Source of the DNA: Alphaproteobacteria bacterium
Lineage (GTDB): Bacteria > Pseudomonadota > Alphaproteobacteria > JAUXUR01
Reading direction: 5' to 3'
Length of the DNA: 64,000 nucleotides
Assembly: GCA_030696155.1 (NCBI GenBank)
Contig: JAUYSY010000088.1
Coordinates: forward strand, 7,014-71,013
The stretch's first letter is position 1. Each line of letters starts with the position of its first letter. Under the pieces are notes generated by a model. That model saw nothing but the letters and a program-made list of their open reading frames with translations, made no database searches and was not told the origin of the DNA. Below, piece by piece: positions 4,831-47,663 of the stretch. The position numbers were made by a program, and so were the translations under genes.

Positions 4831-5001
4831 TTTGACCCTGCAAAAAAACCATCCTTATTGTTTTACATGATTAATATCAATGTTTCAAGGTTAAAATAAA
4901 TTTCATAATTTTCTGGTTTTTCGATTTGGTAAAAACTGAATGTTAAAAACAAGTGAAACTCCATGGGGCAACCCCCGTGGTGTTTCGTTAGAACAATAAA
5001 T

Positions 5002-9792: not shown

Positions 9793-11280
9793 ATGTTAAT
9801 TTTGAATTCATTTCAAAACAATGCTGAGTGCAATGATTTTGTTATTAAATTCGAAATTAAAACAAAAAATTTAATTAAAAACAAAATAAATAACATATTT
9901 GAACTAACGGATGAATTTGGTAAAAAAATAATTTCTATAGTTCATTTAAGCACCTGGCAAACAACTAGATCTTCAAATCCATATGGAATCATTTTTTCTG
10001 TTCATCCCGAATTTCTAGAAGAAGCAATTGAAGAGCATTTTATATATGATAATCCATTTAAACATTCAACCGGAACTGGCCTTATGGTTCAAGATGAGTG
10101 TTTATATTCATATCCAATTAATAGCACATTAAATGAAAACAATGTGTTATTAAAGTATGATATAAATCAAAATAAGTTTTTTAGTTTAGATGAAATACAA
10201 TTTAACCCTTATTACACATTTTCTAATGATACTATATTAAGTGGCGATAGAAAAAACATTAAATTTACCAATTTTCCAGATTTAAAAGAATCCTTATCTG
10301 GAGCAATAGGTAACTATTTATTATCTGGAAATTTTATTTGTTTGGATTTTATTGTTGATAAAGAATCCGATCCAGATGGTATTGGATTTGTTGCATTAAA
10401 AATGTATAAATTTAGCACTGATGAAAATAAATGGAATTTTTTGCATTTATCTAGATTAAAAAATAAAAATGATTTTTTATATTGTATTTCCTGTCAACTT
10501 AATGAATTTATTTTATGCACATCTTATGGATGGATATATAAAGCATCTGAAAATGGAATAGAATGCATAGGTACTAATTATGATGGAATCAGCAATCAAC
10601 TTTATTGTGCTTTAAAATTCAACGATGAAGTGCTGTATGGACATTACCCATCAGGGCGCATTCACTTAATAACAGATACGCAACAAATAGATACAATGGA
10701 ACCTCCCATTCTTAATCCTGTTTGGCCAAATGAAAGAGAATTAATGGCCATGTGTCTTTATGCTGGCTCTGTTTATACTGGCATTTGGCCCTGGGGTGAA
10801 GTTTATAAAAAAAATATAAATACATCCGTTTGGGCCCAAGCAATGAGATGTTTTGATAAACCAGATTTTAATCAATTTAATGAAGCACCTTATAAAGATG
10901 TTATAGAAGCCAATGGGTTAAGTTTTGTTTATAATGAATTTGGACAAAGAGTTTATCATATCGTTCCCTATGATGAATATTTATTTTTATCAACGTGTGG
11001 AAAAAGTTCTTGTCCAAGAGATTTATGGAAAAATGCAGAAGATCATATTAATTTAGATGAATATGGAAAGATCCATTCAATCAAAATTAATGGCCAATAC
11101 ACACTTTATATTAAAGCATCAAGTAAGTTTACCTTGATTAAAATTGAAATACTTAATTCTTTACAAAAAATTAATATTTACATTGATAAAATACTTATAA
11201 AAACGCTAGAAAATTGCGTTGTTAAAATTCCTGATAAATATAATTATCAATTTTTTGATGAAAGCCGCATTAGAAGCTGA
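9793..11280 (+). CDS. Family-A paralog 2: hypothetical protein (no obvious signal peptide; possibly N-terminally truncated)
   Basis: Same conserved blocks as 105..1664 and 32392..33915. The C-terminal half shares long near-identical nucleotide stretches with 32392..33915. A stop lies a few codons upstream of the first Met. Confidence 0.6.
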   Translation: MLILNSFQNNAECNDFVIKFEIKTKNLIKNKINNIFELTDEFGKKIISIVHLSTWQTTRSSNPYGIIFSVHPEFLEEAIEEHFIYDNPFKHSTGTGLMVQDECLYSYPINSTLNENNVLLKYDINQNKFFSLDEIQFNPYYTFSNDTILSGDRKNIKFTNFPDLKESLSGAIGNYLLSGNFICLDFIVDKESDPDGIGFVALKMYKFSTDENKWNFLHLSRLKNKNDFLYCISCQLNEFILCTSYGWIYKASENGIECIGTNYDGISNQLYCALKFNDEVLYGHYPSGRIHLITDTQQIDTMEPPILNPVWPNERELMAMCLYAGSVYTGIWPWGEVYKKNINTSVWAQAMRCFDKPDFNQFNEAPYKDVIEANGLSFVYNEFGQRVYHIVPYDEYLFLSTCGKSSCPRDLWKNAEDHINLDEYGKIHSIKINGQYTLYIKASSKFTLIKIEILNSLQKINIYIDKILIKTLENCVVKIPDKYNYQFFDESRIRS

Positions 11281-11579
11281 GCGTATTTCGCAAAACTGTA
11301 CCATTCGCTAAAAAGATGGTTAAATCAAAATACAAATGGCCTGGTTCAACGACACCTTACAATACAGAAGAAAAAATATTAGAAGTTCAGAACAAACCAA
11401 AGAACAGACCACGAAAATCGTTAAGCTATAAAAAAACGTAGAGAGTTTTTTTATAGCCCATTAAAACAAATCCTGATTGTACATATCACTGTCGATTTAT
11501 CATTTACTATAAATTTAATTGGTTAAAAATGTCATTTTCTATGTTGTCTTTTACACAATTATTTTAACAACAAATTTTA

Positions 11580-12413
11580 CTAAATAGAACCATCAAGTGA
11601 TTCATCAATTTCGTCGATTAATTTATTTAAATTATCCTTAATCACAATTTTCTGTTGCAATGTAAGCTTTGAAAGAGATTTTTTTTGAATTTTCAATTCA
11701 TTTTCATTAAAAGCAAGCCTAAGAACTGAAAACGTTTTTTTTATCTTTTTAAAAGAAGCGTTCCCACTCATCCCTTTTATAAAATCAGCTTGCTCATCTT
11801 GTGAAGAAATATTGAAAAGTTTTCTTAGATTTTCGCGGCCGCGAAAATCTGTTTCCAAAATTAAATTCTGCACATCTGGATGAAGTGTGTTTAATTTAAT
11901 CAATTCTGAAATTTGAGAATTAGAAAGACCAACTTTAGACTTAAGTTCTGTCTGCCCTCCCCACCCAACTCTATCTATTAACGATTTTAAAGCACGCGCA
12001 ATTTCCATTGGATGCAAATCCTGACGTTGGACATTCTCAATAAGAGCAATTTCTTCCGCTTTGGCAAGATCCTCAACAATTATACATGGAATTTTTAACA
12101 ACCCAACAAGTTTTGCTGCTCTTAATCTACGCTCACCACTAATTACCTCAAAAACCAATTCATCACTTGAGCTTCTTAGTACAGTTAATGGTTGCCTAAT
12201 ACCATGCTCTTTTATAGTAACGGCAAGTTGTTCGATCTCCTCTTCGGAAAACAATTTTCTTGTTTGTTTATTATATGGCTTTAATTGATCAATAGAAAGA
12301 TACGCAACTTCATATCGTTTATCATCACTAAAAACACTTACTCTTTTTGAAACCGATGTATTTGAATTAAATTCATTGGATGTTATTCTAATTTTTGCAT
12401 TATCTATTTTCAT
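11580..12413 (-). CDS. parB: ParB/Spo0J-family partition protein
   Basis: ParB box ISGERRLRAAKLVG. Position immediately downstream of a ParA gene. Confidence 0.8.
   Translation of the reverse strand: MKIDNAKIRITSNEFNSNTSVSKRVSVFSDDKRYEVAYLSIDQLKPYNKQTRKLFSEEEIEQLAVTIKEHGIRQPLTVLRSSSDELVFEVISGERRLRAAKLVGLLKIPCIIVEDLAKAEEIALIENVQRQDLHPMEIARALKSLIDRVGWGGQTELKSKVGLSNSQISELIKLNTLHPDVQNLILETDFRGRENLRKLFNISSQDEQADFIKGMSGNASFKKIKKTFSVLRLAFNENELKIQKKSLSKLTLQQKIVIKDNLNKLIDEIDESLDGSI
11829..11848. promoter_or_regulatory. Candidate parS centromere site: 20-bp perfect GC-cored palindrome ATTTTCGCGGCCGCGAAAAT (inside parB)
   Basis: Perfect palindrome read directly. GC-rich core in an AT-rich background. 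A near-identical copy lies in the parA-parB intergenic region. Confidence 0.45.
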
Positions 12414-12428
12414 ATAAAACCCTAAAAC

Positions 12429-12444
12429 TTTCGCGGCCGCGAAA
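12429..12444. promoter_or_regulatory. Candidate parS site: 16-bp perfect palindrome TTTCGCGGCCGCGAAA between parA stop and parB start
   Basis: Perfect palindrome read directly. 18 of 20 positions match the 11829..11848 copy. Confidence 0.45.
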
Positions 12445-12445
12445 A

Positions 12446-13426
12446 TTAAGCAGCCACTTTAACATTACTATTTTTAGAACTTTGCTGTACAAGCTCATGA
12501 ACTAAATCCATTACATCTTCAAAAGCAGCAGACCTTGATTTGCAGAAAGCAGAAATTGGAAGTCTCATTTTTGCAGCAATGTTTATATCTTCTGATTTTC
12601 TCACGACAGATCCCATAACATGGTTTCCATAATTCACCCTAAGAGCACCCAACACCTCTTGAGCGATGGCCGTCTTAATCTCATACTTATTAGGTATAAT
12701 ACAATAATTGGGATTTAACCCCATGTCATGATAAAAATTATTCATCTCATTAATAAAAACACCCAAACCATTAAGACTGAACGGCTGTGTTTCACATACA
12801 ATATTAAGCCTATCACAAGCAACAAGAGCATTAAGATTAAGCGTACTAATTGTAGGGTTACAATCCATAATGATAAAATCATAATCTTCACACAGTGGAT
12901 CTAAAATGAGTTTTAGCTTTTCTTCTCTCTTATTTTTAGAACTTAACGGAACCTCGATCCTTGTCACCGATATATTTGAAGGAATAAGATCTAATCCAGG
13001 CATAACTTTTACAATAGCATCATCAACAGAAACACCATTTATCATAATATCATATATTGTTGGACCACTCCAATCTTCTGGAACATTCATTACATTTGAT
13101 AAATGTCCCTGAGGATCTAAATCAATGCATAAAACTTTAAAACCCAAAAGAGATAAATGCGTAGCAACCTGATAACACATACTTGTTTTACCAGTACCAC
13201 CTTTAAAATTATAAAAAACATGTATTTTTTGAAAGATTGGTCTTTTGTGACTGGCATAAACCAAATCTGTAATTTCACGCGTAACTGAAAATGGATAACG
13301 CTTTGTATAATTATTATCATTATGAATTGGCTGAATATTTTGAGACACAATTAACCTTGACACAATAAGTGGTGTCGCTTGGCAAAGCTGTGCAATCATA
13401 GCTTGATTATAGGTGATGTTTTCCAT
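12446..13426 (-). CDS. parA: ParA/MinD-family partition ATPase (with N-terminal extension)
   Basis: Deviant Walker A FKGGTGKTS, followed by CIDLDPQG. 326 aa with ~70-aa N-terminal extension typical of type Ia ParA. Confidence 0.9.
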   Translation of the reverse strand: MENITYNQAMIAQLCQATPLIVSRLIVSQNIQPIHNDNNYTKRYPFSVTREITDLVYASHKRPIFQKIHVFYNFKGGTGKTSMCYQVATHLSLLGFKVLCIDLDPQGHLSNVMNVPEDWSGPTIYDIMINGVSVDDAIVKVMPGLDLIPSNISVTRIEVPLSSKNKREEKLKLILDPLCEDYDFIIMDCNPTISTLNLNALVACDRLNIVCETQPFSLNGLGVFINEMNNFYHDMGLNPNYCIIPNKYEIKTAIAQEVLGALRVNYGNHVMGSVVRKSEDINIAAKMRLPISAFCKSRSAAFEDVMDLVHELVQQSSKNSNVKVAA

Positions 13427-13678
13427 TTTTATCTCTTAATCTAGTCTTATTGGATAATTACATAAATTTTTACAAGATACAAGTTATATTCAATTAAATC
13501 AAAAAACGTATCATGCTTCTTTTTTAGCTTTTAAGCATAATCCAAAAAATAATAACATTTTCTTTGATTGTTAAAAATTCCCCCTTGACAAGAAGAGTTG
13601 ATTTGTTGGTTAATAGGATATGAATTTTGGGAAAGTTTAAAAAAACATTTTCGTAAAATTTAAATTTTAAACACAAAC

Positions 13679-13711
13679 AAAAAAAACCTTCTGCTATAAC
13701 AGAAGGTTTTT
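13679..13711. other. Perfect stem-loop flanked by an A-run and a T-run (AAAAAAAACCTTCTG-ctataa-CAGAAGGTTTTT) in the parA/rep divergent intergenic region
   Basis: 7-bp perfect stem and 6-nt loop with A8 upstream and T5 downstream. Bidirectional terminator-like, but not at the 3' end of either flanking gene. Confidence 0.4.
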
Positions 13712-13839
13712 CTTACACATGAGCTTCAACACGCTCAAGATCACACAAAGTATCTTGAGTCTATAACAAACAATACGTAATGTCAAACAAATGTTGTTGC
13801 TTGTATGTGTATTAACTTATAAAGAGTTGGATCACACAC

Positions 13840-14943
13840 ATGATAAAATCTAAAGTTTTATTACAAGAAGATAAGTGTCTTGTTATGCAGCCGGAACTTA
13901 TTAAAATTGCGGGCAAATCAGCAGCATTATTATTACAACAAATTCATTATTGGATTAGTAATGAAAATGTTCAGGGTAAAATTCATAACAAAATGAAGTG
14001 GATTGCAAATTCCTACGAAGCATGGACTTCTGACATTAAAATAATATCAAGAAGCACTATTGGAAGATCAATAAATACATTAAAAAACTTAGGCATTCTA
14101 TTTGTTGAAAAATTGTCTGATTTTAAAAACAATAGAACAAATTGGTATACAATCAATTATAATCGTATTACTGAAATATTATCTATCCCTAGTATTGATC
14201 ATTCCGTACAAACTTCTTCGCATTTAAACGCTATCCCTGATCAAAATGTTATAGATGAACAATTCAAAATGAGCCCATGTTCAATTCAAAATGAGCCGAT
14301 GTATATAGATAAGAAAACAAACAAAGATATCTTAATAAATCTTAATAAATCAATAAATAATTCTTTTTCTGTAATTAAAAAAGAAAAAATAAAAAAGCCG
14401 TTGACAAAACAAATGATTGATATTTGGAATGAAATAATTAATCCGGATGTAAATTATGAACTTACTAAAAATAGATGTAAGTTTCTTGTTGCAGCTCTTA
14501 AATATAAGTTTAATTATGACATAACACAATGGAAAAATTATTGTTTTAAAATAAGTAGCAGTGATTATTTAATGGGAAAAATTAAAAATGGATTTAAAAT
14601 TTCTTTGGATACTATTTTAAAATTTGATTTTATTCAAAAAATTTTTGAAAAACAATTTGGTGTTAAAGATTTAAAAACTTCTTTTGAAACCGAAGAAAAC
14701 ATTCATCAAAAAATTGATGATACTAAATTACCATACGAAATAAAAGAAATACATCATAAAATTTGTGAAAAAATAGGTACTGCAAAATATATTTCTTGGT
14801 TTAAAGATACGAAAATATTTAAATTATCAAATTCAATAGATATTTTTGTTGATAATAATTTTAAAAAACAATGGATAGGAACAAACTATCAACGTGATCT
14901 TGAGAATTTATTTGGCATAAAAATTAAGATTATTATTAATTAA
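13840..14943 (+). CDS. Putative replication initiator / wHTH DNA-binding protein (divergent from parAB)
   Basis: N-terminal winged-helix-like segment (ISRSTIGRSINTLKNLGILFVEKL), as in DnaD/RepA-type initiators. The position opposite parAB across a 413-bp AT-rich spacer supports the call. The functional assignment is inference. Confidence 0.35.
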   Translation: MIKSKVLLQEDKCLVMQPELIKIAGKSAALLLQQIHYWISNENVQGKIHNKMKWIANSYEAWTSDIKIISRSTIGRSINTLKNLGILFVEKLSDFKNNRTNWYTINYNRITEILSIPSIDHSVQTSSHLNAIPDQNVIDEQFKMSPCSIQNEPMYIDKKTNKDILINLNKSINNSFSVIKKEKIKKPLTKQMIDIWNEIINPDVNYELTKNRCKFLVAALKYKFNYDITQWKNYCFKISSSDYLMGKIKNGFKISLDTILKFDFIQKIFEKQFGVKDLKTSFETEENIHQKIDDTKLPYEIKEIHHKICEKIGTAKYISWFKDTKIFKLSNSIDIFVDNNFKKQWIGTNYQRDLENLFGIKIKIIIN

Positions 14944-15075
14944 AAAGGTTATACAGGTTTAAAAATATGATGTTTATAAATAAGTATCAATTATTTTTTT
15001 GTTTAAACTTTTGAAAGTGTATCATATGATCTTTAATCTAGTTTTTATTCTGCAGTAAATGTGATATAAAAAAAT

Positions 15076-16239
15076 ATGAAAATTTTATTAACCGCAGGCA
15101 TTAATATAAATCAAAACAACGCATGTTCAATTAATTTTTTAAGAACAGCAAATTCTTTTTCTTATCTATCAAATGATGAAATCATTATTTTTACTGCTGA
15201 AAAAAATTCAAAATTATTTTCAATATTAAAAAAAAATAATATTATTAAAAAAAGTGGTTATTTTAATAAAAAACTTCCAAATTCAATAAATTTTCTTATT
15301 AATATTCCTAAAATTTTAAATATTGTTAGAAAAGAACATATTGATATTGTTTATATACGTTATAATCTTATGAGCTTTTTTCTAGTATTTTTTATAAGAT
15401 TTTTTTCAAATACTTTTATCGTAACAGAACATCACGGATGGGTTGAAGATGAATTAAAATCGAACAAAAAAAGTAAACTTGTTTCATTTTTATTTAAAAA
15501 ACTTCAAATATTAGATGTTAAAATGGCTCACTTAGCACGTGTAGTCGTGGATGGTATAAAAGAAAAATTTGTTAATAATGGAATAAGACAAGAAAAAATA
15601 GTTGTTTTTCAAAATGGTACCGATATTGCTTCTTTTGAAGATAAAAAGAATTTTAAAAAAATAAAATCAGATTATTATAAAATAGGATTTATAGGAAATT
15701 TAGCTGCGTGGCAAGGTGTACATATTGCGTTAATGGCAATGCCTATCATTCTTAAACATAGAAAAGATATAAAATTAATAATTATTGGAGATGGCCCTGA
15801 AAAGAAAAATCTTGAGCAGCTGTCTCATTCTTTAAATTTAAAAAACAATGTTGATTTTTGCGGGGAAGTTTCTTTTCAAGATGTTCCTTTAGTGTTGTCT
15901 GATTTTGATATTGCTATTGCACCTTTTACCTCTGAAAGAAATAAAAAAATTGGATTAAGTCCTATTAAAATTAGGGATTATGCAGCATCAGGGCTTGCAA
16001 TCATCTCTTCTGATATTAAAGGGATTTCTGATTATGATTGGCTTATTAAAGTGCAGCCAGATGATCCGGAAGCCTTGGCAAAAAATATTTTACATTTGGT
16101 TGAAAATGAACCCCTTAGAAAGAGTCTTCAAGAAAAATCAAAAAATTACGCTTTTGAGCATTTTGATGTAAAAATAATAGGTGCAGCCATTATGGCTGAA
16201 ATTACAAAAATAAAAAACAAACAATTAAGTGGCAAATAA
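15076..16239 (+). CDS. Glycosyltransferase family 1 (GT-B, GT4-like)
   Basis: C-terminal GT1 signature region IGFIGNLAAWQGV...IIIGDGPEKKNLEQL...FCGEVSFQDVPLVLSDFDIAIAPF. Confidence 0.85.
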   Translation: MKILLTAGININQNNACSINFLRTANSFSYLSNDEIIIFTAEKNSKLFSILKKNNIIKKSGYFNKKLPNSINFLINIPKILNIVRKEHIDIVYIRYNLMSFFLVFFIRFFSNTFIVTEHHGWVEDELKSNKKSKLVSFLFKKLQILDVKMAHLARVVVDGIKEKFVNNGIRQEKIVVFQNGTDIASFEDKKNFKKIKSDYYKIGFIGNLAAWQGVHIALMAMPIILKHRKDIKLIIIGDGPEKKNLEQLSHSLNLKNNVDFCGEVSFQDVPLVLSDFDIAIAPFTSERNKKIGLSPIKIRDYAASGLAIISSDIKGISDYDWLIKVQPDDPEALAKNILHLVENEPLRKSLQEKSKNYAFEHFDVKIIGAAIMAEITKIKNKQLSGK

Positions 16240-34107: not shown

Positions 34108-34677
34108 ATGAGCAAATTAATCGGATATGCACGTGTTTCAACATCAGGTCAGGAACTCAATCTTCAGATCGATGCGCTTAAAAAAATTGGATGTGAAAAA
34201 AAGAATATTTTTACGGATGTTGTCTCTGGCTCTAAAACGGATAGGCCTGGATTAAATGAGTGTTTAGAAACTTTACAATCAGGCGACACACTTGTTGTTT
34301 GGCGATTAGACCGTTTAGGGAGGTCAATGTCTCATCTTGTTTCAACTATCGAAAATTTGATTGCCAAAAAAATTGGATTTAAATCTATTTCAGATGGACA
34401 TATAGATACAACGACGGCATCAGGAGAGCTTATATTTAATATATTTTCGTCTCTTGCTCAATTTGAACGACGCCTTATTCAAGAAAGAACAAAATCAGGA
34501 TTAGAGGCAGCACGAGCAAGGGGCAGGGTAGGGGGCAGAAAACCAATAAGCAAATATAACTCAAAAGTATTAGCGGCTCAAAAATTACATCACGATAAAT
34601 CAATGCCAATAGAAAATATTTGCAAGGAGTTGCAGATTTCAAAACCAACTTTATATCGCTATCTTAAATTGAAGTGA
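34108..34677 (+). CDS. Serine recombinase (resolvase/invertase family)
   Basis: GYARVSTSGQ catalytic-Ser motif and C-terminal HTH. 189 aa. Confidence 0.9.
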   Translation: MSKLIGYARVSTSGQELNLQIDALKKIGCEKKNIFTDVVSGSKTDRPGLNECLETLQSGDTLVVWRLDRLGRSMSHLVSTIENLIAKKIGFKSISDGHIDTTTASGELIFNIFSSLAQFERRLIQERTKSGLEAARARGRVGGRKPISKYNSKVLAAQKLHHDKSMPIENICKELQISKPTLYRYLKLK

Positions 34678-34983: not shown

Positions 34984-35793
34984 TTATACATTAATAACCT
35001 CTTGAATCTTAGGCTTAGTGTATTCAGCAGCTCCCGCTTTAACGATCAGATTGTTACATGGCTGCCAGTTGGCTTTGCTATGTGTATGACCGCAAAGTGC
35101 TAAAAATTCAATATCAGTATTTGCTTGAGCGATTTGCATCAGCACATCGCCTGTTATTTTTGATGAGAAGAATGGAAGAAAATCATCGTTGCTTATTTTA
35201 CCTTCATGCATACAGGCTTCTTTAAATGGTGGCACATGAATCAAAATAATAACTTTTTTAGGACGATTATTGCTAATGGCATCAGACAATCTCGCTTTCA
35301 AATGCTGGGCATCTTGATCGGCTAATTGCTGCATTTTCTCAAGTAACATGTATTTACCAAAAATGTTGCTTTGAAACAGATCGATGATCATTCGGCTGTC
35401 ATTTAGGGTGACACAACTATTGGTATAATCCCCATATCTGCCATCGGCCCAACAATCTTCACCGAGCAAAATAGTTTGACTCCCTAGATCGTGCACACCA
35501 GACGCTGGAAGCCAATGAAGTAACGGTTCATTTTTGGTTAGATCGCGCATTTCTTGGCGTAATGAATCCACTTGGCCGCGGTAATAATCATGGTTGCCGA
35601 GCACAAAATATATTGGTTTTTGAATTTCTTTGACCATTTCCTTTAGAATTTCTGAAACTGATGGCGCTTCAGCAATATCGCCGCTAATCAAAATCATATC
35701 ACCGGATATCGCTATTACTTTTTTGTAAAACTCCATTCTGCGCTCTGGCCCTAGAAAGTTAAGATGAATGTCTGTTAGCCAAATCAATTTCAT
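34984..35793 (-). CDS. Calcineurin-like metallophosphoesterase
   Basis: LTDIHLN, ISGDIAE and VLGNHDYY motifs. 4-nt overlap with upstream AbiEii-like gene. Confidence 0.8.
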   Translation of the reverse strand: MKLIWLTDIHLNFLGPERRMEFYKKVIAISGDMILISGDIAEAPSVSEILKEMVKEIQKPIYFVLGNHDYYRGQVDSLRQEMRDLTKNEPLLHWLPASGVHDLGSQTILLGEDCWADGRYGDYTNSCVTLNDSRMIIDLFQSNIFGKYMLLEKMQQLADQDAQHLKARLSDAISNNRPKKVIILIHVPPFKEACMHEGKISNDDFLPFFSSKITGDVLMQIAQANTDIEFLALCGHTHSKANWQPCNNLIVKAGAAEYTKPKIQEVINV

Positions 35794-36575
35794 GGGAGCC
35801 TGCTAATAATCTTATCTATAACGAGTTGATAAGCTTCTTCGAAGTTCCAGTGCAATTTGGAAGGCAATAAAATGCTCATATCCATATGGAAATCACGATG
35901 ATTTTTCTTCTGATCGAGATTTTTTATGAATTCTTCCCGTGAGATCTTCACATCGTTATAAATGCAATATTTAGAAAAAATTTCAAAAACTCTATCCAAG
36001 TTAATCAATTCTTGCTTTGTAACGTACCATAAATCAAATAAATCTCGCCCTTTTCGACGTTGGTATAAGGCGCGCAGTTTAGTTGCTATAAGCTCATCAA
36101 TTTCATAGGTGACAATATCCGCAGAGCCATTAAACCATTCAGATTGCACATCTAATTTCTCTAAGCGAAAAGGTAATACCTGAAAATGCTCAGTGGTGTT
36201 TATTTCAATTTTTAGTTTTGCTGGTAGTGTATTAATAGCCTCGTATTTATAAATTAATTTGGCACTGCGTTCGGTAATTTTCCATTTTGGATCACCAAGC
36301 CATGGTTTTAGAAGCGCTCTGATTGCATCAATTGTTTTTCCGATAGGTTCAGATCTTTTTTGTACGAAATCAATGTCTTCACTATATCTTGCTGGTGGCT
36401 TTAGAAATAGTTTATTGAGTGCGGTACCGCCACGAAAAACAAGTGCATCTTTTATGTATGGCTCGTTATACAAATCAACCAGAGCCCGGCTAATAATTAA
36501 ATCTTGTTCTATTTGTTCAAGTGTCTGCCATTTGACAGTTTGACGCCAATGTTCAATGAAAATTTCTGGAATCAT
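35790..36575 (-). CDS. AbiEii/AbiGii-family nucleotidyltransferase toxin (type IV TA)
   Basis: FRGGTALNKLF...RYSEDIDFV signature of the DUF1814/AbiEii family. 4-nt overlap with the upstream antitoxin-like gene. Confidence 0.7.
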   Translation of the reverse strand: MIPEIFIEHWRQTVKWQTLEQIEQDLIISRALVDLYNEPYIKDALVFRGGTALNKLFLKPPARYSEDIDFVQKRSEPIGKTIDAIRALLKPWLGDPKWKITERSAKLIYKYEAINTLPAKLKIEINTTEHFQVLPFRLEKLDVQSEWFNGSADIVTYEIDELIATKLRALYQRRKGRDLFDLWYVTKQELINLDRVFEIFSKYCIYNDVKISREEFIKNLDQKKNHRDFHMDMSILLPSKLHWNFEEAYQLVIDKIISRLP

Positions 36576-37378
36576 AAATCGCTCTCTATTTCTGTATTAT
36601 TAATAATTCTCCACTTTTTACATCTGGGATAGCCGGTTTTAGGTATTTCAGAAGCAAGTGGGAGATATTTTAGTTTGTGCTCTGCGACATACGAAGCAAG
36701 AGCATTAATAATTATTTCAGCATGGTTATCATCTATAATTTCAATATTGTCTAGGATATAACCAATGCGTTGCAATTGATGTTCAGCTTTGATATCCTTC
36801 GCAAGTTTTATAAGCTTGGTAGCATCTAAGTTTTCAACCAGCTCTGATAAAACCGTTGCTATATGGTTTAAGCCACCTGCATGGTTCGGGTAATTCAGTA
36901 AATCAAGCGCTATCAATTCAGGGGTTGCTATTTTAAGGTAACCGGTACTAACAGTAAAATTTTGGATCGGTAAAGCTGATATGGATTTTTTATAAATAAA
37001 CTCTATCTCTATATCACCAAAAGTTAATGAATGTTTAATTCTTTTGTCTGATATAACCTGGAATCTAGCAGGTTTTTGGTGCGTAGCTCCATGGAACAAC
37101 CCTGCGGTTAGCAACGCAACATAATAATTAGCACCTAAATATTGCATCATCAAAGGAACTAATTCTTTTGCTGGTATAGAACCATGCGGTTGATGTTCAG
37201 GTGGAATGATGACATACAAACCTCTGGCAGGTGAAATCACATCCCTAGTTTTAAGTAACCGATGTAAGGAAACCCTCGCATGGTTGTGTGAAACGTGAAA
37301 TTGCGCAACGATATCCTCGATGGTAAAGCAGCGTTTTCCATCTTTTCGGATATCTTTTATGTATGATTGTAAATTCAT
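36572..37378 (-). CDS. AbiEi-family antitoxin / transcriptional regulator
   Basis: 268 aa with N-terminal wHTH-like region. Operon position upstream of the AbiEii-like toxin. GC-richer than flanks. Confidence 0.5.
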   Translation of the reverse strand: MNLQSYIKDIRKDGKRCFTIEDIVAQFHVSHNHARVSLHRLLKTRDVISPARGLYVIIPPEHQPHGSIPAKELVPLMMQYLGANYYVALLTAGLFHGATHQKPARFQVISDKRIKHSLTFGDIEIEFIYKKSISALPIQNFTVSTGYLKIATPELIALDLLNYPNHAGGLNHIATVLSELVENLDATKLIKLAKDIKAEHQLQRIGYILDNIEIIDDNHAEIIINALASYVAEHKLKYLPLASEIPKTGYPRCKKWRIINNTEIESDL

Positions 37379-38684: not shown

Positions 38685-41600
38685 ATGCGTCTTCTTGGCA
38701 ATGATGATGCCGCGTCCACTTTCATTAAGCTCCCTAACATTTTGAAAATATTAGCCAATACCTTTGGCGTCCCAGCCATTAACGCCCAAATAAAGCAAAT
38801 CGCTGATCAAATCGTCAAAGGCGTGTTCCTAGAAACAAACTGGGCGGGCTTGCCTTATACGGGTAAATTACGCGCGGATATTCTGTCTATCCTTAAAATG
38901 TTCGGGTTTGCAGAAGAATTCGACGACCAATTGGTGTTGGGCGATGCAGTTGTGATTGCCCGTGTGCTTGAAGATGCAGCACTTCGACTTGTGGGCAAAC
39001 CCTATTTCCATGATGCGAGTCGTGGGCAAATGCCCGAACAGCAAGTCAAGGATTTGCTGGTTAATATGGTGGCGTTTTCCCGCCAATATTGGGCGCAATT
39101 GGATTTCAAAAAGCCGTTCCCTGAACATATGCGCCATCTTGTTACCGAACCAATGTTATGGCTGGTGCAAGAAGATCTGACGGTTGGTGCTATTAGCTTA
39201 AAACTGCTCATGCCCTATATCGTTTTTCCAAATGCGTATTTGGCGGAAATTGATGATCAATTGAATGGAATTGCTACTTATAACAGTATTGATGTGACGG
39301 TTTCGGATCTTGCTTATATTGAAGCGCCTCTCATTGTAAAAGAAAGCTCGAGTTTCGATTGTAAAGACTTTATAACCCGTATGCGTCGTGATTACGGCAG
39401 CAAGACTTTATACAATTCAAGCGTTAAAAATGGTGTAACAACTATTCATGATGCTTACACAGTGCCCACCATTACGTTCCATGATCATGAGAAATTCCAT
39501 TTTGGGAAAAAATTAAACGTCAAAGCCAGCAATAATATTGTTAATGATGCGGGTCGCATCTTCGCAGATGTCATGCATTTCCAAGCAAAAGGCGATATGT
39601 ATAATAGCGGCCAAATGTGTTTTGTGGATTCTTTAAAAGCGAATATTAACGGGTCTTTCAGCAATGACATTATTGTTGTGACTGAATATGACGAAGTCAA
39701 CGGCGTTAAAGGAACCAGAACCTATACGGGACACGCGGCACGCAATGCAATCAAAGCAAATTCAGGACAAATACTTGCGATCGGCGACGGCAAAGGTCTG
39801 TTCGATGTTAAAACAGGTAAAGACTTCAACCATCGCGGTATTATTGACGTTAATGACGTTAAAATAGTAGCAAATGGAAATCTTAAGATTGAAAATCTAC
39901 CTGACCAATTTGTTGTTCGCTGGGATCCTGGGGCTGGATCTAAAAAAGGCATGGATTGTTTCTCGATCGCCTCCCAATTTACACCGTCGGAAATCCGAGC
40001 ACGCGATGGCTCTGTAAAGCTTGTCGTGGGCGGAGATGCTACGGTGTATGCGTCTTTATTAGCTGCTGCTGACGATATTATTGTTGAGGCAAAGGGTTTC
40101 ATAAAGGCGGAAGCCAAGGGCGAGTCTTATCTAGGTAATGTCAGCATTGAAAACGGCAGACGAAATCGCACTATCAAACAAGAATCGGACATCATCATCC
40201 AGAAAGTGCAAGTTGTTGCAAATGGCAATGTCCGCATGATTGCGCATAAAAATGTTAATATTAAAGGTGGTGATATTGTGGCCGGCCTTGAAGTTGAAAT
40301 TGTTGGCGAAAACATCAATCTAACGCCGATTCAACTCATTGCAGAAAATAAAGTCAAAGAATATGGTTCACGTGGTTTTTCTTATTACAAAAACAATATG
40401 ACTTATTCGACTTCCAATGTTGCCACAACCGATATTCACGCGAATAGTATTAAGCTTTCCGCTAAACATGATGTGAATATTAAGGCATCGATGCTGATGG
40501 CGATGGAAGACATTACGATTAATGCCGGCAATAATATTACAATTGTTGAGGAACTCGTCGAACATTATGTGCACAGCAAAAGCTTTTCAGCACATTTGAA
40601 TTTCTTTGGCAAAAGGGCGATGGATCGCGTTTTAAAGAAAGACATGCGTGGGGCGACACGTGCTTTCGCGCAGGAATTTGGGATTTTAAACCAAATGAAT
40701 CGCTTGATCAAAGCGAAACATGGGCCCGATGTGGCAATTGAAAGCGTGAAATCCATCCTTGATTTATATAAAGAATATCAAGCCATTGATAAAATGGGTT
40801 TTGTTAATTATTGCAAGAAAGCGGCTGTTGAAAAGCTTTTAAGTTCAAGTGCTTCTCTTGAATTTAGTCAAGAAAAACAACAATGGTTTGAAGCGATTTT
40901 GCCCGTGATGCGCGCGAAAAATATTCTGATGAAAGCGGGGAATAATATCAATTTGCGTGGCCTTCAAGCTAAAGCTGAGACGATGAGTCTAGAGGCTAAA
41001 GGCAATATTGATATTCGTGCCGCACAAGAATATTATAATTACCATAAAAAAATACGCACATTAGAAGTGCATACAAGTGCGAATTTTGATCCGGTCAATA
41101 ACGAGTTCTTACTGCCTAATGTTGGTTTTTCGGCTGGCTATCAAAGTTGCTCAAATCATGGCGTGAGACATAAAAATTCACATATTGTTGTGGATAGATT
41201 CGAAGCCCGAACACCCAATACATTGACGTTGGAAGGCGCTACAATCAAAGCAACAGATGTCAAAATCATTGCCAATGCGTTGTTGATGAAATCCTTGGTG
41301 GATACTGAATCTGGGCGCAATAAAGCAATTTCTGGCGGGTTGGATCTGAATTTGGCAAATGGTCAGTTAAGCGGCCATGTTGAGGGCAGCAAAGGGTCTT
41401 ACAGCAAAGCTAAAGTCAACGAACAAACAGGCATCACGGCTTTGGGCGAGTTCATCGCAGAAATCGGCGATTTAACGCATTTGCAAGGGGCATATATTGA
41501 TGCTGTGAACAGTACATTAAAGACGGCGCGTTTTCTTCATAATAATGTTGAAGAATATGACCGATCGAAGCAAACGAGTTTCGATACAGGCAGCTTCAAT

Positions 41601-42911
41601 ATTAAGAAATTCGATATGCCTGGTTCAAAGAAGGATGCGCCAGCAAAACAAGATCAAAATAATGCACCGAAAACGGATTTCGGCATTACGGATGTAGGCT
41701 TCTCGAGGAACTCGTTATTTGCTTTAGTGGATGCTTCCTATCAAAGCAAAAACCAAAAAGGCGTGCTCAAAGCTGGTGCTTCGTCTGGTGTGCAAATCGT
41801 CACGCAATCGGATATTGGCAATTTAAATCGTGATTTAAGCCAAGCGCGCGAATTGGTCAAAGATCACAAGCATTATGTGCGGGTTTTAGTACCTGTTGGT
41901 GATCCAAGTGAATTTATTGAAACCCTCAAAGAGATGTTCAGTGATGTTCAAGGATTGTTTCAATCGGCTGAAACGAAAAGAGAACGCCAGGAAATCAAAG
42001 CGTATAAACAGATTTTTGACGCTATCGAAGAACGCGATGATTTAACGCAAACTGAAAAAGTACAAGCGTTTCAAGCAGCAAGTAATGTGTTGAATCAAAT
42101 GAAGGAAATTCAGCGCGAAACAGCTTCATTAGAAAAAGATATTTCTAAAATTGAAGATAATTTCTTTTCAAAGACAAAAGAAACGACGCCCCATGTTCCT
42201 GTTGAAATAAAAGTTGAAAATCAACCTGGTTGCAACGGTGAGGATGGATGTTATGAAGTACACATTACACGAGGTCATTATGATTATACGAAAGGCACCT
42301 TACATTCAGTTGCCAAGAAAATACGTTATCTTCAAAATGCGTATGAAGATTTTAAAGAAAGCCAACCCAAATGGTTGCGTAATACTTTAAATGCGGCCAT
42401 GGGTGTCGCAGGCTTTTGTGCAGGTGGACCCCTTAAGAAGATTGGTCAAAAACTTGCCACGATTGCGGTTGCTGAAGGTCTTCATATTGGTGCAGATGAT
42501 TTATTAGATCATATCGAGCATAGTGATAGTGATCGAATAGCAGATATGGAAAGCTTCCTGCGTATTACTAGAAAAGATACGCTTACTTTTACTGGATTGT
42601 TCTTAGGTGTCGCGATTTACAAAGCAACACCTGGCGGCACGTCAAAAGCGGCACTCAAGGCAAAAGAACGTAAGTTTGCACGTGAACAACATGGTGATAC
42701 GCATATTGATGGAGGAAAAGCACATAAAATAAATCCCGCACTTCTTACGGGTATTGCGAAAATCCGGTATGATTGGGAAAACTTCGTACGTCAAAAATTG
42801 GTGGAAGGATTTAAGTTTGAACGGCATCATATTGTGCCAAAAGAATATGCAAAGCACGATGCTTTTAAATTAGCCGGTACGCATGTTGATGATAAAATGA
42901 ATCTTGTGTAG
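38685..42911 (+). pseudogene. FhaB/CdiA-like polymorphic toxin fragment (no N-terminal secretion/TPS domain) with C-terminal AHH/HNH-type nuclease domain interrupted by in-frame TAG at 42909..42911; reading frame continues to 43172
   Basis: Haemagglutinin-type beta-helix repeats (VVANGNVRMIAHKNVNIKGGDIV, IHANSIKLSAKHDVNIKASM, ITINAGNNITIV). C-terminus ERHHIVPKE...NLV-TAG-LPRKG...THRGKHYQPY matches the AHH nuclease pattern. A stop codon lies 18 codons upstream of the first Met. GC noticeably higher than surrounding DNA. Confidence 0.55.
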
Positions 42912-43122: not shown

Positions 43123-44025
43123 ATGTCAATACATCAGGAGAAAGGTTTCATCATGAAATCCATCCAAAATAATAAACCATATAAATGGGGTGTATTAGAA
43201 AAATATCCTGAAAAATATTTTGCAAATTATGATTCTGATAAAAGTCCTGATGCGTTTTATTTAAGACGATGTTTTAAATGGCCTGATGATTTACCTGAAA
43301 AATTGAATAATATTTGGAAAAAAAAAGTAAACCCTCCTTATGTATATTATTATGATGTAAAAGGGGATAAAGAACGACTTTTAATTTATGATTATATATC
43401 AAATATTACAAGTGTGCCTATTGTTAATAAAAGGACAAGGATTTTATTAGAAGAGTTTTGTCCTAATGATGTGCAATTTATAGACACTGAAATTCAAACA
43501 AAAAATGGCATTATTAAAGATGAATATTATGTGATTAATATTTTGAATAAAGTAGATGCCATTGATATGGAGAAAAGCGATTATTCTTATGAAGAAGATG
43601 GTGCTATAAATTTTAAAAAAGTATATTTTAAAGAAAATTCTATGAAAGGCCATTGGATTGCGCGTGATCAACAAGAATTTGGTATTATTTTAGTTTCAGA
43701 CGCATTAAAAAAATTATTTAGAAAACATAAAATTAAAGGCCCTGCTTTTTGGACAGATGTTGAGGCTTATCGTTATACGCCTACCTATGAATCAATTCCA
43801 AGATTTTTTGAAAATAATTTTAAAATTGCGCTTTCATATTTTCAAAGTGATTTAGAAGTTGATAGTAGTTTTCAGATATTAGTGCGTCGGTTGGATCGGA
43901 TACCACTTCATATGTTGGATGTTTTAATTGAAAAAGTTTCTGATTTATCTGATGAAGGCAAGAAGCGTTTGGAAAAAATAAAGGTTTTGGTTGAAGAATT
44001 ACGTCAAAAGCAAATGGGTGGCTAA
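43123..44025 (+). CDS. Putative immunity protein for the upstream nuclease toxin domain
   Basis: Intact 300-aa AT-rich ORF starting within or overlapping the end of the toxin reading frame, the classic toxin-immunity arrangement. No recognisable motif. Inference from context. Confidence 0.4.
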   Translation: MSIHQEKGFIMKSIQNNKPYKWGVLEKYPEKYFANYDSDKSPDAFYLRRCFKWPDDLPEKLNNIWKKKVNPPYVYYYDVKGDKERLLIYDYISNITSVPIVNKRTRILLEEFCPNDVQFIDTEIQTKNGIIKDEYYVINILNKVDAIDMEKSDYSYEEDGAINFKKVYFKENSMKGHWIARDQQEFGIILVSDALKKLFRKHKIKGPAFWTDVEAYRYTPTYESIPRFFENNFKIALSYFQSDLEVDSSFQILVRRLDRIPLHMLDVLIEKVSDLSDEGKKRLEKIKVLVEELRQKQMGG

Positions 44026-44312
44026 GATTTTACGAGGTTAGAGGGCATTGCGTCACAGTAAAACTGTGCCAAGAAATTCATGCGAATGTGAAAATCAATA
44101 ATAAAAGCATCGTTGAATTTTTTTGTTTTTTTTGCGGGGCCTTTCTTTTTAGGCCCACTCAATGTCCTCTTTCAAGGCCCTCCTTCTTCTTTTTTTGTCA
44201 TCTGTGGGAAGGGGGGTTCTTTTAATATGAATATAAAAACCGATCTTAGACAAGTGAATTTTAAATCGACATTTATCGGCCTAACAGCCAGCAGATGTTT
44301 GAGTGGGAGAAT

Positions 44313-44427
44313 GGCATTGCGTCGCAGTAAAACTGCGGCAGAAATTCATTTGAATTTCTGGGGCTAAAGCCCACGCAATGCCTTTACCTCCACCCACATC
44401 TTTTTTTTACGGCTAAATTCCGCGAGC
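44313..44427. repeat. Palindromic cloverleaf-like repeat element, copy A: 70-bp core with 10-bp terminal inverted repeats GGCATTGCGT/ACGCAATGCC and three internal hairpins, plus ~45-bp conserved tail
   Basis: Read directly. ~90% identical to 45474..45590. Partial copy at 44046..44090. Confidence 0.7.
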
Positions 44428-44573
44428 TGTTAAAACCAGGAGCGAGGTTCTATTCATTTTGTATAAAATTGTTAAAATTCGATATGTACTCTAGGTTTTA
44501 TTTGCTATAATGATCACAATTTATATCTTCTGATGATGTAATCGGATAAAATTAAATATAATAGGATAAAAAC

Positions 44574-45440
44574 ATGCGCGAACTTATTGATCCAAGGGTT
44601 GATTTGGCCTTTAAAAAAATTTTTGGCGTTGAAGAAAATAAAGATCTTTTAATTTCTTTAATTAATTCTGTTGTATCTCAAGAAGATCAAGTTCAAGATG
44701 TTGTACTTTTAACTCCTTATAATCCGCAAACATTTCGAAGTGAAAAATTATCAATTCTTGATATTAAAGCTGTAGGGCTGGATGACAAACGTTTTAATAT
44801 TGAAATTCAGATTAGTGATGAAGCGGATTATGATAAAAGAGCCCTTTATTACTGGGGTAAATTATATACAGAACAATTAAAAACAGGTCAAGATTATGGT
44901 ATTTTATGTAAAGCGATTGGGATTCATATCCTAAATTTTATGTCGATTCCGGATTCTAAGAAATATCACAATATTTTTACGATTAGAGAAAAAGAACTCG
45001 ATATTGAATATTTTAAAGATTTAGAACTACATACGATAGAACTTTCAAAATTTAATGCCGATGAACGTTTTACACAAGTAAAAACGGCTCTTGACAGGTG
45101 GGTTGCTTTTTTAACGCGTCAATCGTTGATCAATCGTGAAAATGTACCTGATCCGATGAATCAGCCCGATTTAAAAAAAGCCCTAAATGTATTGGATGTC
45201 ATGAATTTAAATGAAGAGGAAAGAAATTCTTATGATGACCATTTAAAATGGTTGCGCATAGAAGCCAATACACTCAAAAAATATAAAAAAGATGGATATG
45301 TTGAAGGTCTTGAAGAAGGTATTAAAAAAGAAAAATTTGACATAGCTAGTGCAATGATTAAGCAAAAGTTTGATGATACTGTTATTATGCACTTAACAGG
45401 TCTTTCTCAAGAAGAAATAGAAAATTTAAAAAGAAGTTAA
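44574..45440 (+). CDS. Rpn/YhgA-family recombination-promoting nuclease / putative transposase (PD-(D/E)XK)
   Basis: N-terminal DPRVDLAFKKIFG motif. C-terminal GLEEGIKKEK...LTGLSQEEIENL tail typical of the family. 288 aa. Confidence 0.75.
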   Translation: MRELIDPRVDLAFKKIFGVEENKDLLISLINSVVSQEDQVQDVVLLTPYNPQTFRSEKLSILDIKAVGLDDKRFNIEIQISDEADYDKRALYYWGKLYTEQLKTGQDYGILCKAIGIHILNFMSIPDSKKYHNIFTIREKELDIEYFKDLELHTIELSKFNADERFTQVKTALDRWVAFLTRQSLINRENVPDPMNQPDLKKALNVLDVMNLNEEERNSYDDHLKWLRIEANTLKKYKKDGYVEGLEEGIKKEKFDIASAMIKQKFDDTVIMHLTGLSQEEIENLKRS

Positions 45441-45473
45441 TTAACTGTTTTTTGTGTATTACTAAAACAGAGA

Positions 45474-45590
45474 GCATTGCGTCGCAGTAAAACTGCGGCA
45501 GAAATTCTTTTGAATTTCTGGGGATAAAGCCCACGCAATGCCTTCTCTTACCCCACATCTTTTTTTTACGGCTAAATTTCCCAAGCGGAT
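45474..45590. repeat. Palindromic cloverleaf-like repeat element, copy B (direct repeat of 44313..44427, flanking the Rpn-family gene)
   Basis: Read directly: AGCATTGCGTCGCAGTAAAACTGCGGCAGAAATTCTTTTGAATTTCTGGGGATAAAGCCCACGCAATGCC followed by the conserved tail ...CACATCTTTTTTTTACGGCTAAATT. Confidence 0.7.
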
Positions 45591-46223
45591 AATAAAAAGA
45601 GACGGAGACCATAAGCATTTGATAGGGTTGAGAGAAAAAAGAGATCGAGAACCTGGGCAAATAAAGCTATAAATTAATAATAAAGTGAGAGAAAATAAAT
45701 AGTCAAATATAAGCACAGATAAAAAAATTGAGATCGAGAGAATAAGCATTAAAAAAAACGAGACCGAGAAACTAAGTAACCGCCTATCATATTTATATTT
45801 ATAATAAAAACATGTGCAGTTTTATCTACCGTTTCAATCTCCAAACGCATTGCCCTATTAGGGGTATCAAGCCCATCTTAATTCAAAAGATTTAGAAAAT
45901 CTCTTATCTATCAAATCAATGACTTTAAGAAATCTTAGGCCTCCAATTGAGAGGATATACAAAATTGCAGCTTTTCACTGACCTTAACGGGATCCTGTGG
46001 AAGAACCCCATAAGGTTCAATCAACAACCAGAGCGATGCCTTTAGCTGTTTGTTCAGCGATTCGTCTTAGCTTTTCATTGAAGGGAAGAACATCAAAGGT
46101 GTTAGTATATTTTAATGAAGCAATGCGTTTTGAGTCGAAAACAGTAGAAGTTATCCTAAGTTTTTTAAAAACAATTGTATCCTTAATCATGGATAAATAT
46201 TAAAAAAAATATATATTTTTTTA

Positions 46224-47663
46224 TTAAATCAGAAGTAAATCTTCTATATTTATAATTTTATAAAAATAATTTTTTTCATAAACTCTATCTGATACATCGC
46301 CTAAATGAAAAAGAACCGGTGCAATCCCAAATCCTTTTGGAATAGAAAAACGACTTATTTTATCTTGAACAGATTCAATAATTTCAGGACCAATATTACG
46401 GCGTTTAAATTTAAATTCGCACAAAAACAAATTATGACTCCTCGTTTGTACTAAATAATCAATTTGGCATCCGCGTTGTCTTGTTGTTTTATGCTGAATA
46501 TAAGGATTATCATTTGCAATATCTGCAGGATTTATACTCAGAAATTTCAACAAAAGAGGACGATTTTGTAAAAGCAAACTCTCAACTTGAATACCCATCA
46601 TAGATTCCCATCCTGCTAATTGATTAATGGATAAATCTTGATAAGTTCCTTGCTCAATTTTCAAGCGATTCGGTTCTATGTATTTTATATAAAACCTTAA
46701 ATAACAGTCTGTTAATCTATAAATACTTTGTTTGCTAATATGCCCCGTTTTTAAAGACCATTGATAATGTTTTGTTACAAAACCGCAAATTATTAAATCT
46801 TGCAGCAATTCACTAAAAGTACCACTTCTTGGATAATCAATAGATTCGCGTAAAATTGACAATGTTTTACTTCCATCACCTAAAGAATGAATAATATCTT
46901 TATGGGTTTTACCATGTCCACCAAATAAATCACTAAAAATACGATCAAATTCACCAATTAAAATACCATCTTTTACAAAACACAAACGCTTAAGATTCGC
47001 GTCTGCCATTTCCATTGGATTGATTTTTTCTAAATACCAAGGAATTCCGCCTGTAATAGAAAGAATTTCAAAAATTTCATAGGTCGAACCTTTAAATCCT
47101 ATGGTTTTAAGAAATTGAGCACATTCAGGCAATGATAAAGGAGCTAAATCAATTTGAAGTGAAATACGTCCAAAAAAAGCAGTACTATTAATAATGTTTT
47201 TTTCAATCCATATTGATACAGAACCGCAAAAAACTAATATTAATTGTGAGAATTTCTGAAGATATAAATCCCACCAAATTTTTAATTTTGGAATAAAAGT
47301 TGGATCTTTGTGTCCCATCCAAGATATTTCATCAAATAAAATAACAGTCTCTATTCCTTTAATATGAAGGGAAAGATGATTAAAAGCATCACTCCAATCC
47401 GTAAAACTTAAAGGTGGCACTTTAAAATGTTGTGCAAATTGACGTGCAAAAGCATCACGTTGATCTTGCGCTGTTATAGCTTTTGTAGGTGCAAGACCAG
47501 AAAAACTAAGAAAATGTTTATTTTTTGAAAATTCTTCAATTAAACGACTTTTGCCAATGCGTCGACGCCCCTTAATAACAACAAGCTTTGGACCTTGCAT
47601 TTTAGCAATTTGCTTTAGATTATTAAGTTCATTTTCTCGTCCAATAAAAGTCTTCATCAACAC
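46224..47663 (-). CDS. AAA-type ATP-binding protein (archaeal-ATPase/DUF234 family)
   Basis: N-terminal FIGRENELNNLKQ...LVVIKGRRRIGKSRL Walker A region, characteristic of the PF01637 + DUF234 family. 479 aa. Confidence 0.7.
   Translation of the reverse strand: MLMKTFIGRENELNNLKQIAKMQGPKLVVIKGRRRIGKSRLIEEFSKNKHFLSFSGLAPTKAITAQDQRDAFARQFAQHFKVPPLSFTDWSDAFNHLSLHIKGIETVILFDEISWMGHKDPTFIPKLKIWWDLYLQKFSQLILVFCGSVSIWIEKNIINSTAFFGRISLQIDLAPLSLPECAQFLKTIGFKGSTYEIFEILSITGGIPWYLEKINPMEMADANLKRLCFVKDGILIGEFDRIFSDLFGGHGKTHKDIIHSLGDGSKTLSILRESIDYPRSGTFSELLQDLIICGFVTKHYQWSLKTGHISKQSIYRLTDCYLRFYIKYIEPNRLKIEQGTYQDLSINQLAGWESMMGIQVESLLLQNRPLLLKFLSINPADIANDNPYIQHKTTRQRGCQIDYLVQTRSHNLFLCEFKFKRRNIGPEIIESVQDKISRFSIPKGFGIAPVLFHLGDVSDRVYEKNYFYKIINIEDLLLI

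Follow-up and report, generated by a model that had tools for sequence, protein, structure and literature searches.

Four-way-junction repeats at the 3' ends of toxin-immunity and Rpn nuclease cassettes in an uncultured alphaproteobacterium

Rpn nucleases are widespread, toxic, recombination-promoting defence proteins, and neither their natural targets in DNA nor the way in which they spread has been established. We analysed a member of this family, and a structured repeat associated with it, in a 64,000-nt stretch (the window; all window coordinates count from its first letter) of the 73-kb contig JAUYSY010000088.1, assembly GCA_030696155.1, Alphaproteobacteria bacterium. The host is an uncultured low-GC alphaproteobacterium (GC content here 21-41%), and the repeats are located within a toxin and defence island. 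The gene (44574..45440, + strand) encodes a 288-aa PDDEXK_2/Rpn-family nuclease with an HTH_Rpn_C domain (PF12784, E 1.8e-56), and PF27070 is listed for the same protein on a Logan contig. An earlier annotation made from the letters alone, here called the sequence-only reading, had named it Rpn/YhgA and had seen that repeats flank it; the Rpn assignment, which is also the NCBI name, is correct, but the protein is not YhgA-like proper (PF04754). Upstream lies an Imm11-family immunity gene (43123..44025, + strand; Pfam Imm11, E 1.4e-17). Three copies of the repeat are present: a long form just past the immunity gene, a short form (A) between the two genes, and a second short form (B) just past the Rpn gene.

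Short form A (c1; 44309..44386, + strand) has a core at 44313-44382 with 4 nt of stem extension on each side and was matched by our covariance models at 101.6 and 99.5 bits; short form B (c2; 45469..45546, + strand; 95.2 and 94.5 bits) has its core at 45473-45542, 32 nt past the Rpn stop. The sequence-only reading had described direct repeats of about 115 bp, beginning at 44313 and 45474 and about 90% identical. Both repeats are indeed there, but the c2 core begins at 45473, with A rather than G at position 1, and the whole units of 115-119 nt, at 87% identity with one indel, are slightly less similar than stated; between the cores, 67 of 70 positions agree. Each core contains three hairpins (H1 to H3) enclosed by 10-bp terminal inverted repeats (TIRs), exactly as that reading had it. 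The perfect 10-bp TIR is GGCATTGCGT/ACGCAATGCC, which in most copies extends to 14 bp (AGAGGGCATTGCGT), and H2 is a perfect 10-2-10 palindrome. The minimum-free-energy fold of the cores is the predicted four-way junction, or cloverleaf. No shuffled sequence was as stable, whether the cores were folded as RNA with flanks (z of -6.4 for c1 and -4.8 for c2) or as bare 70-nt single-stranded DNA (-9.4 and -7.8). The short form as a whole measures 70-78 nt and is followed by a T-rich tail of about 45 nt; a conserved tail had been claimed, and the window contains exactly two instances of its 25-mer CACATCTTTTTTTTACGGCTAAATT, where chance would give 0. The same Rpn gene was also assembled independently from short reads (L001, a Logan SRR13727522 contig equivalent to window 44318-45503), and that assembly breaks inside both flanking cores, as expected where the cores are repeats longer than the assembler's k-mer.

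The stretch at 44046-44090 that had been taken for a partial copy of 45 bp forms the 5' part of a long form, complete though diverged (44040..44170, + strand; 22.8 and 28.8 bits), which starts 15 nt past the Imm11 stop; the covariance-model match at 44044-44141 spans the full model. This copy has a 14-bp TIR (AGAGGGCATTGCGT/ACTCAATGTCCTCT), H1 of CACAG/CTGTG, an H2 loop with a 33-nt insertion, and H3 of GGGCC/GGCCC with a 10-nt loop. Long forms measure about 112-131 nt, the H2 and H3 loops being expanded relative to the short form. The window long form folds on its own to a four-way junction, as do those on other contigs, with z down to -8.6. Its orthologues lie at positions 231-362 (- strand) of metagenome contig L029 and at 5473-5603 and 11112-11230 of contig L035.

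The element forms a family and is not a feature of one locus only: we found 11 distinct copies in six sequences, namely the window and five contigs from metagenomes; they occupy other genomic contexts too and come from several metagenomes. Samples containing relatives are JGI 3300055294, ERZ28615069, ERZ15185791, ERZ27272710 and SRR13727522. Copies hold a fixed position and orientation after cassette genes. The closest homologues of the window Rpn protein, from several independent samples, are 95%, 85% and 79% identical to it, and a short form follows each of their stop codons. Taking the window together with contigs L030, L031 and L035, there are four Rpn lineages at or above 79% identity, and in all of them the short form sits 13-33 nt past the Rpn stop; it has been kept across three genomic contexts and through about 14-21% protein divergence (14% over aligned columns, 21% by BLASTP). 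Long forms begin 15-33 nt after four immunity-gene stops. On the 1.4-kb contig L029, the only one returned by a metagenome scan (JGI), an orthologous immunity gene is followed by a long form at the same place, and L035 carries two long forms behind two immunity genes, one of them unrelated to Imm11. An orthologue of short form A is found at L035 11371-11440 with no Rpn gene beside it. The L035 array as a whole (116-16149) reads toxin (AHH), Imm11, long form, Rpn, short form, orphan toxin, unrelated immunity gene, long form, spacer X, short form, Fic (opposite strand), orphan toxin.

The association does not extend across the Rpn family. Scans with our two covariance models (R1 and R2) found no element at the seven loci of Rpn homologues with 62-66% identity (L039-L043, L048, L049), and the Rpn genes on Rickettsia, Cardinium and Megaira plasmids have neither the element nor any comparably structured 3' region; the 3' regions of more distant Rpn genes are unstructured or carry simple hairpins. 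The same models, run with filters off, revealed no fourth copy in the window, where all three copies lie within 1.5 kb, and no copy in contigs that total about 46 kb, derive from this organism or a relative of it, and share the recombinase of this metagenome-assembled genome (MAG). A TIR-pattern scan of 185,579 GTDB representative genomes returned 27 hits, all of them single occurrences in genomes of high GC and with no interior similarity, which we treated as chance (about 23 expected by our own estimate); the source species is thus absent from these representatives. No element was detected in three viral-contig scans, in plasmid searches or in a phage search, and a blastn search of PLSDB, including Rickettsia plasmids, matched only the Rpn coding region. 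A protein search with a 95-aa antisense open reading frame (ORF) across the element gave no match, and a literature search for the element sequence gave unrelated primer matches only. The family is previously undescribed and adds to the known class of small structured intergenic repeats.

The fold has been maintained during evolution. The Rpn-3' core is 90-94% identical among lineages, whereas in the most divergent pairs the codons of conserved residues agree at only 70-72% of their third positions, and the spacer and tail flanking it diverge much more than the core. Among short forms, 12 columns vary. Six of these are unpaired, and the other six comprise two in the terminal pair, two in a loop-closing pair (compensated once), one that is G.U-compatible and one that is disruptive. 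A MAFFT alignment of long and short forms together misplaced the 3' arm of H2; the copies were segmented by hand and checked against the sequences. In these segmented copies several pairs switch on both sides, so that the compensatory changes for which the sequence-only reading had asked are present: H1 pair 2 is GC in 5 copies, AT in 3, GT in 2 and AC in 1; H1 pair 6 is TA in 6 and CG in 3; and pair 6 of the closing stem is GC in 7, AT in 2 and GT in 2. Matched indels give the long forms exactly one extra pair in each of two hairpins, A-T in H2 and C-G in H3. In a length-matched alignment, 91.7% of cells were paired, as against 29-44% with slid partners, and the covariation score was equalled by only 3 of 500 shuffles. 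As the sequences are few and related, this support is moderate rather than overwhelming.

The two short forms of the window have different histories. In the conserved order of blocks, the last ~45 codons of the immunity gene are followed by the long form, spacer X, short form A and tail A (44387..44457, + strand; 25-mer at 44395-44419, then a degenerate GAGA-type repeat at 44433-44457). The same block is present without Rpn in L035. Compared with the immunity proteins of L035 and L029, the window Imm11 protein shows 58% identity as a whole and near-identity at its C-terminus, within the block. The Rpn unit, on the other hand, starts at GTATAAAAT in every Rpn-bearing locus, about 105 nt before the start codon, and its 3' end is always short form B with tail B (45547..45593, + strand; 25-mer at 45554-45578). 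Upstream and downstream copies thus bear distinct tail types, each conserved across contigs, which argues that the two direct repeats are separately inherited lineages of the family and that neither a recent duplication nor a core-to-core integration produced the pair. The upstream copy belongs to the toxin-immunity junction block and not to a symmetrical Rpn transposon. A circular Rpn cassette integrating core-to-core was considered and rejected for the window, where the upstream copy retains a tail of the A type, which in L035 occurs in the absence of Rpn.

Spacer X (44171..44308, + strand), identified by cross-locus alignment and folding, is conserved in L029 and L035 and contains the start of a non-conserved short ORF (ATGAATATAAAA...). 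Its conserved hairpin at 44174-44221, CCCUCYUUC...GGGAAGGGGGG, includes G.U pairs that work on the + strand only and is followed by a U-rich run. Lying downstream of the long form, this hairpin probably acts as the true terminator for the toxin-immunity operon.

Several breakpoints of rearrangement lie at the edges of the element. In L031 the upstream core's outer end is the exact point from which homology to the window begins. The adjoining sequence (4459-5115) is an S66 LD-carboxypeptidase gene of ~50% GC in a contig of ~33% GC. The gene is cut short at residue ~201 of ~317, and the first 8 nt of the TIR overlap its native GWAL codons; the joint lies at a microhomology, GGGCA(C/T)TG. The closest intact relatives of this gene, from Candidatus Saccharimonadales, are only 79% identical, and neither an empty site nor a target-site duplication could be defined for the insertion. 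This is the one copy that touches an ORF (L031 5051-5163), and it does so at the truncation joint and not by in-frame insertion; the sequence-only reading had asked whether copies insert within genes in the manner of Rickettsia palindromic elements (RPEs). Beside the S66 gene are AadA-like and FAD-monooxygenase genes and a DDE transposase, and the S66/AadA-like block is apparently a horizontally acquired, resistance-like segment. At the second site in L035, the unrelated immunity gene meets the conserved block 8-12 nt ahead of the TIR. In L030 the left half of the upstream copy is lost, and core similarity starts only inside the H2 3' arm. A second copy in L031, of the long form, lies upstream of Rpn with its core inverted with respect to the tail, and the end of L029 is of the same inverted type. 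At the orthologous position between spacer X and tail, the window core is short and in one orientation, that of L029 and L031 long and in the other. On the right, the extent of the Rpn unit also differs between the window, L030/L031 and L035, in agreement with the report that the ends of rpn regions vary, without TIRs or target-site duplications (PMC10400941).

The interpretation that we favour, tentatively, is that the element is a lineage-restricted structured boundary element at cassette 3' ends, similar to repetitive extragenic palindromes (REPs) and bacterial interspersed mosaic elements (BIMEs), and that it is also a joint for recombination. In such a scheme the element would be co-transcribed with the gene upstream, and its very stable fold would protect and insulate the 3' end of the cassette, as with REP/BIME sequences; for REPs, stabilisation of upstream mRNA, operon punctuation and a role as recombination hot spots have been proposed (PMC3733652, PMC2817692). 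The tail may then restart transcription into the following cassette. Conserved promoter-like motifs hint at such a terminator-plus-restart module: TTTACG-17-GATAAT at 45565-45593 in tail B, with TCTACG-17-TACAAT as its L035 counterpart upstream of an orphan toxin. Since the same palindromic sequence recurs at every boundary, the element could in addition be where recombination (homologous, template-switch or microhomology-mediated) joins, removes, truncates or flips cassettes. The long forms, which lie 15-33 nt past immunity stops and upstream of the G.U-containing terminator-like hairpin, would be placed in a 3' untranslated region (UTR). Like REP/BIME sequences, the element is an extragenic palindromic repeat just past genes, with a conserved fold and variable loops. 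REPs, however, are single stem-loops of 20-40 nt, linked to REP-associated tyrosine transposases (RAYTs) and present in hundreds of copies, whereas the element is a 70-131-nt four-way junction with TIRs of 10-14 bp, occurs in very few copies limited to toxin/defence cassette junctions, and has no RAYT that we could see; its density in the available sequence is far below that of REPs (over 100 per genome).

Several observations weigh against this interpretation. Short form A (c1 and L035 11371-11440) comes after the terminator-like hairpin and may therefore lie outside any 3' UTR. The U8 run stands 17-20 nt beyond the closing stem, so that the core is not a canonical intrinsic terminator; a terminator scanner called none at the cores, and spacer X has the better terminator-like hairpin. 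The covariation statistics are modest and derive from 11 related sequences only. Mismatched pairs comprise 17 G.U and 10 A.C, without significant strand bias, and this count does not distinguish a role at the RNA level from one at the level of single-stranded DNA. The same-orientation observations are not independent, as the blocks are inherited together. Finally, the Rpn insertion of the window involved no crossover inside the cores, the upstream copy having kept its native A-type tail.

One alternative is that this Rpn lineage has the element as its cognate DNA substrate: the PD-(D/E)XK nuclease would recognise the folded junction or a hairpin, cut at its base or at the tip of H2, and so move, delete or join the Rpn cassette and its neighbours. 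The constant presence of a short form 13-33 nt past the Rpn stop in the four close lineages and their three contexts agrees with this idea, and so do the breakpoints, found with microhomology at the foot of the closing stem in L031 and inside H2 in L030. It has also been pointed out that the true in vivo target of Rpn is unknown, that Rpn could make substrates for microhomology-mediated assembly, and that the PD-(D/E)XK clan takes in junction-resolving enzymes (PMC5350276). Elements are found without Rpn, however, both at L035 11371-11440 and behind immunity genes; the element is missing from homologues at or below 66% identity, the plasmid-borne ones among them; the Rpn of E. coli is not sequence-specific, and flanking repeats have been reported to be absent from rpn genes (PMC5350276; PMC10400941). 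In addition, there is ascertainment bias, every Rpn-linked contig having been found through Rpn. We consider this alternative unlikely. A bolder version, in which the cloverleaf is the specific in vivo target of Rpn and cutting at boundaries drives a RecA-independent, microhomology-joined movement of Rpn and toxin-immunity cassettes, is a shade more doubtful still. If it were true, it would represent a new kind of mobile cassette, consisting of a nuclease and its structured site. The element sequences are short and can be synthesised, and binding and cleavage by Rpn are therefore directly testable.

Another scenario is that the element is a non-autonomous transposable element, mobilised in trans and inserting in either orientation into preferred intergenic targets. 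[quoted passage not shown] The sharp homology boundaries at the TIRs, the core in both orientations between the same flanks and the overlap of one copy with a gene end fit this scenario. The defining features implied by the MITE, REP or RPE label proposed in the sequence-only reading nevertheless fail. None of the 11 copies has a target-site duplication (left flanks AGAG, AGAT and GAAT; right flanks TTTA, TTCT and TCTT), and no empty site was found. There are no in-frame insertions. Copies are not dispersed in the ~64-kb window or the ~46 kb of contigs, being seen only in toxin/immunity/Rpn junction blocks, and the TIR motif occurs in the window only at elements, besides single-mismatch chance sites. 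No transposase adjoins any copy, and none with these TIRs was seen; a DDE_Tnp_1 gene 3 kb away in L031 was not checked for them. With respect to RPEs in particular, we found no similarity to Rickettsia plasmids and only chance hits in the genome scan, the RPE consensus sequences themselves not being compared. Orthologous copies co-diverge with the host genes and retain the fold, which argues for selection at the locus rather than recent bursts of transposition. We regard a MITE as improbable.

A third possibility is that the element is an attC-like site for a dedicated site-specific recombinase, by which toxin-immunity, X and Rpn cassettes would be exchanged as in integrons. Like attC, it is a structured imperfect palindrome at the 3' end of each cassette, with the fold more conserved than the sequence and a variable terminal loop; the perfect palindrome of H2, the array-like order of L035 (toxin-imm-long-Rpn-short-toxin-imm-long-X-short) and a Pin-like serine recombinase gene 10 kb upstream in the window (34108-34677, + strand) could be cited in its favour. 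But attC is a single bulged hairpin with R''/R' core sites, whereas the element is a three-hairpin junction with imprecise cassette ends. It lacks the core sites RYYYAAC/GTTRRRY (its ends are AGAGGGCATTGCGT ... ACGCAATGCCCTCT, with no GTTRRRY), and neither IntI nor another tyrosine integrase was present among the 16 Pfam-scanned window ORFs or in the gene tables of L031 and L035, the ORFs at 1-29 kb and >53 kb not being scanned. The serine recombinase recurs in contigs without the element, the tail types place Rpn entry downstream of tail A with no core-to-core crossover, and the right-hand ends of the Rpn unit vary. This possibility seems to us very unlikely. A further parallel to cassette punctuation is offered by the neisserial intergenic mosaic elements (NIMEs; dRS3/RS repeats) around maf/tps islands, which are bounded by inverted repeats, punctuate toxin-immunity arrays and are thought to promote cassette exchange. 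Their sequence and architecture are unrelated to those of the element, and to our knowledge neither a cloverleaf fold nor an association with Rpn genes has been described for them.

The conserved fold, the loop-biased substitutions, the compensatory changes and the consistent association with toxic gene products might also suggest an independent small RNA or cis-regulatory RNA with its own promoter, for example an RNA antitoxin or a regulator of Rpn or the toxin-immunity genes. We find this highly improbable: there is no Rfam match and no convincing promoter upstream of any copy, the core occurs in both orientations, and the loops vary freely in sequence and in length, from 3 to 33 nt, which would be unusual for a partner-binding RNA. 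The Rfam search of the window gave no hit at gathering thresholds, and the best permissive hit was the miRNA mir-242, at 22.5 bits against a gathering threshold of 54. ARAGORN found no tRNA at default settings, one weak 'tRNA-Stop' on c2 at 80% thresholds, and many false calls at 70%. Last, a functionless local duplication with a chance palindrome, which the confinement of the window copies to one 1.5-kb stretch might have suggested, is excluded for practical purposes by the copies in other contexts and metagenomes, the distinct and separately conserved tail types, the core conservation above the synonymous rate and the compensatory changes.

The interest of the element rests mainly on its stable link to one Rpn clade, which makes it a candidate natural Rpn substrate that can be tested. 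The retention of a structured 3' repeat by this clade is an exception to the published view of rpn genes as lacking flanking repeats (PMC10400941). Independently of Rpn, the element extends the known range of bacterial intergenic repeats by a four-way-junction type and provides a natural example of repeated palindromes that punctuate, and probably shuffle, polymorphic-toxin and defence cassettes.

The Rpn gene itself has 2703 homologues, many of them named Rpn family, in Rickettsiales and alphaproteobacterial MAGs. The C-terminal region of its product varies among lineages by insertion of the tetrapeptides EGLE, KGLE and KGIQ (window 45270-45330, compared with L031 ~6100-6170). Hypervariable repeats of four amino acids were described in RpnL/RpnS (PMC10400941), and the match suggests that the window gene encodes a genuine Rpn toxin and, internally, its antitoxin. 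The upstream region of the gene (44461..44573, + strand) is conserved in alignments across loci and contains a promoter-like extended -10 motif, TGCTATAAT, at 44503-44511, the promoter assignment here depending on sequence only. Downstream of tail B are four direct repeats of the GAGA type, each of ~24-26 nt (AAAARGAGAYNGAGA-N3-5-TAAGCRTT; 45594..45778, + strand), where 0.28 matches would be expected by chance. The first two are kept in L030 and L031, and repeats of this type also occur at window 44433-44457, L031 6384-6455 and L030 ~1395-1470. They look like iterons or protein-binding sites.

Other genes of the island lie on both sides of the elements. Upstream are the serine recombinase, of which a near-identical paralogue exists on another contig of the same MAG, an AbiEii/AbiEi pair (35790-37378, - strand) and a 1408-aa polymorphic toxin with filamentous-haemagglutinin repeats (38685..42911, + strand; Pfam Fil_haemagg_2). 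The N-terminus of this toxin is nearly identical to that of L035 toxin t1, which has an AHH toxin domain. Downstream are a candidate defence ATPase, PDC-S27 (46224-47663, - strand), and a 747-aa protein with a YoeB-toxin domain at its end (50389-52632, + strand). The orphan toxin genes of L035 have a common stretch of 5' homology (ACCTACCCGACCAATTC...GGGATCC). Between the GAGA-type repeats and PDC-S27, the window contains a 36-nt inverted repeat, 75% complementary (45825-45860 and 46113-46148), whose right arm is overlapped by a 57-aa ORF on the minus strand (46017-46190). The left arm contains CTACCGTTTCAATCTCCAAAC, a motif also present ahead of the L035 orphan toxin genes, and the inverted repeat is probably a remnant of the orphan toxin 5' homology region.

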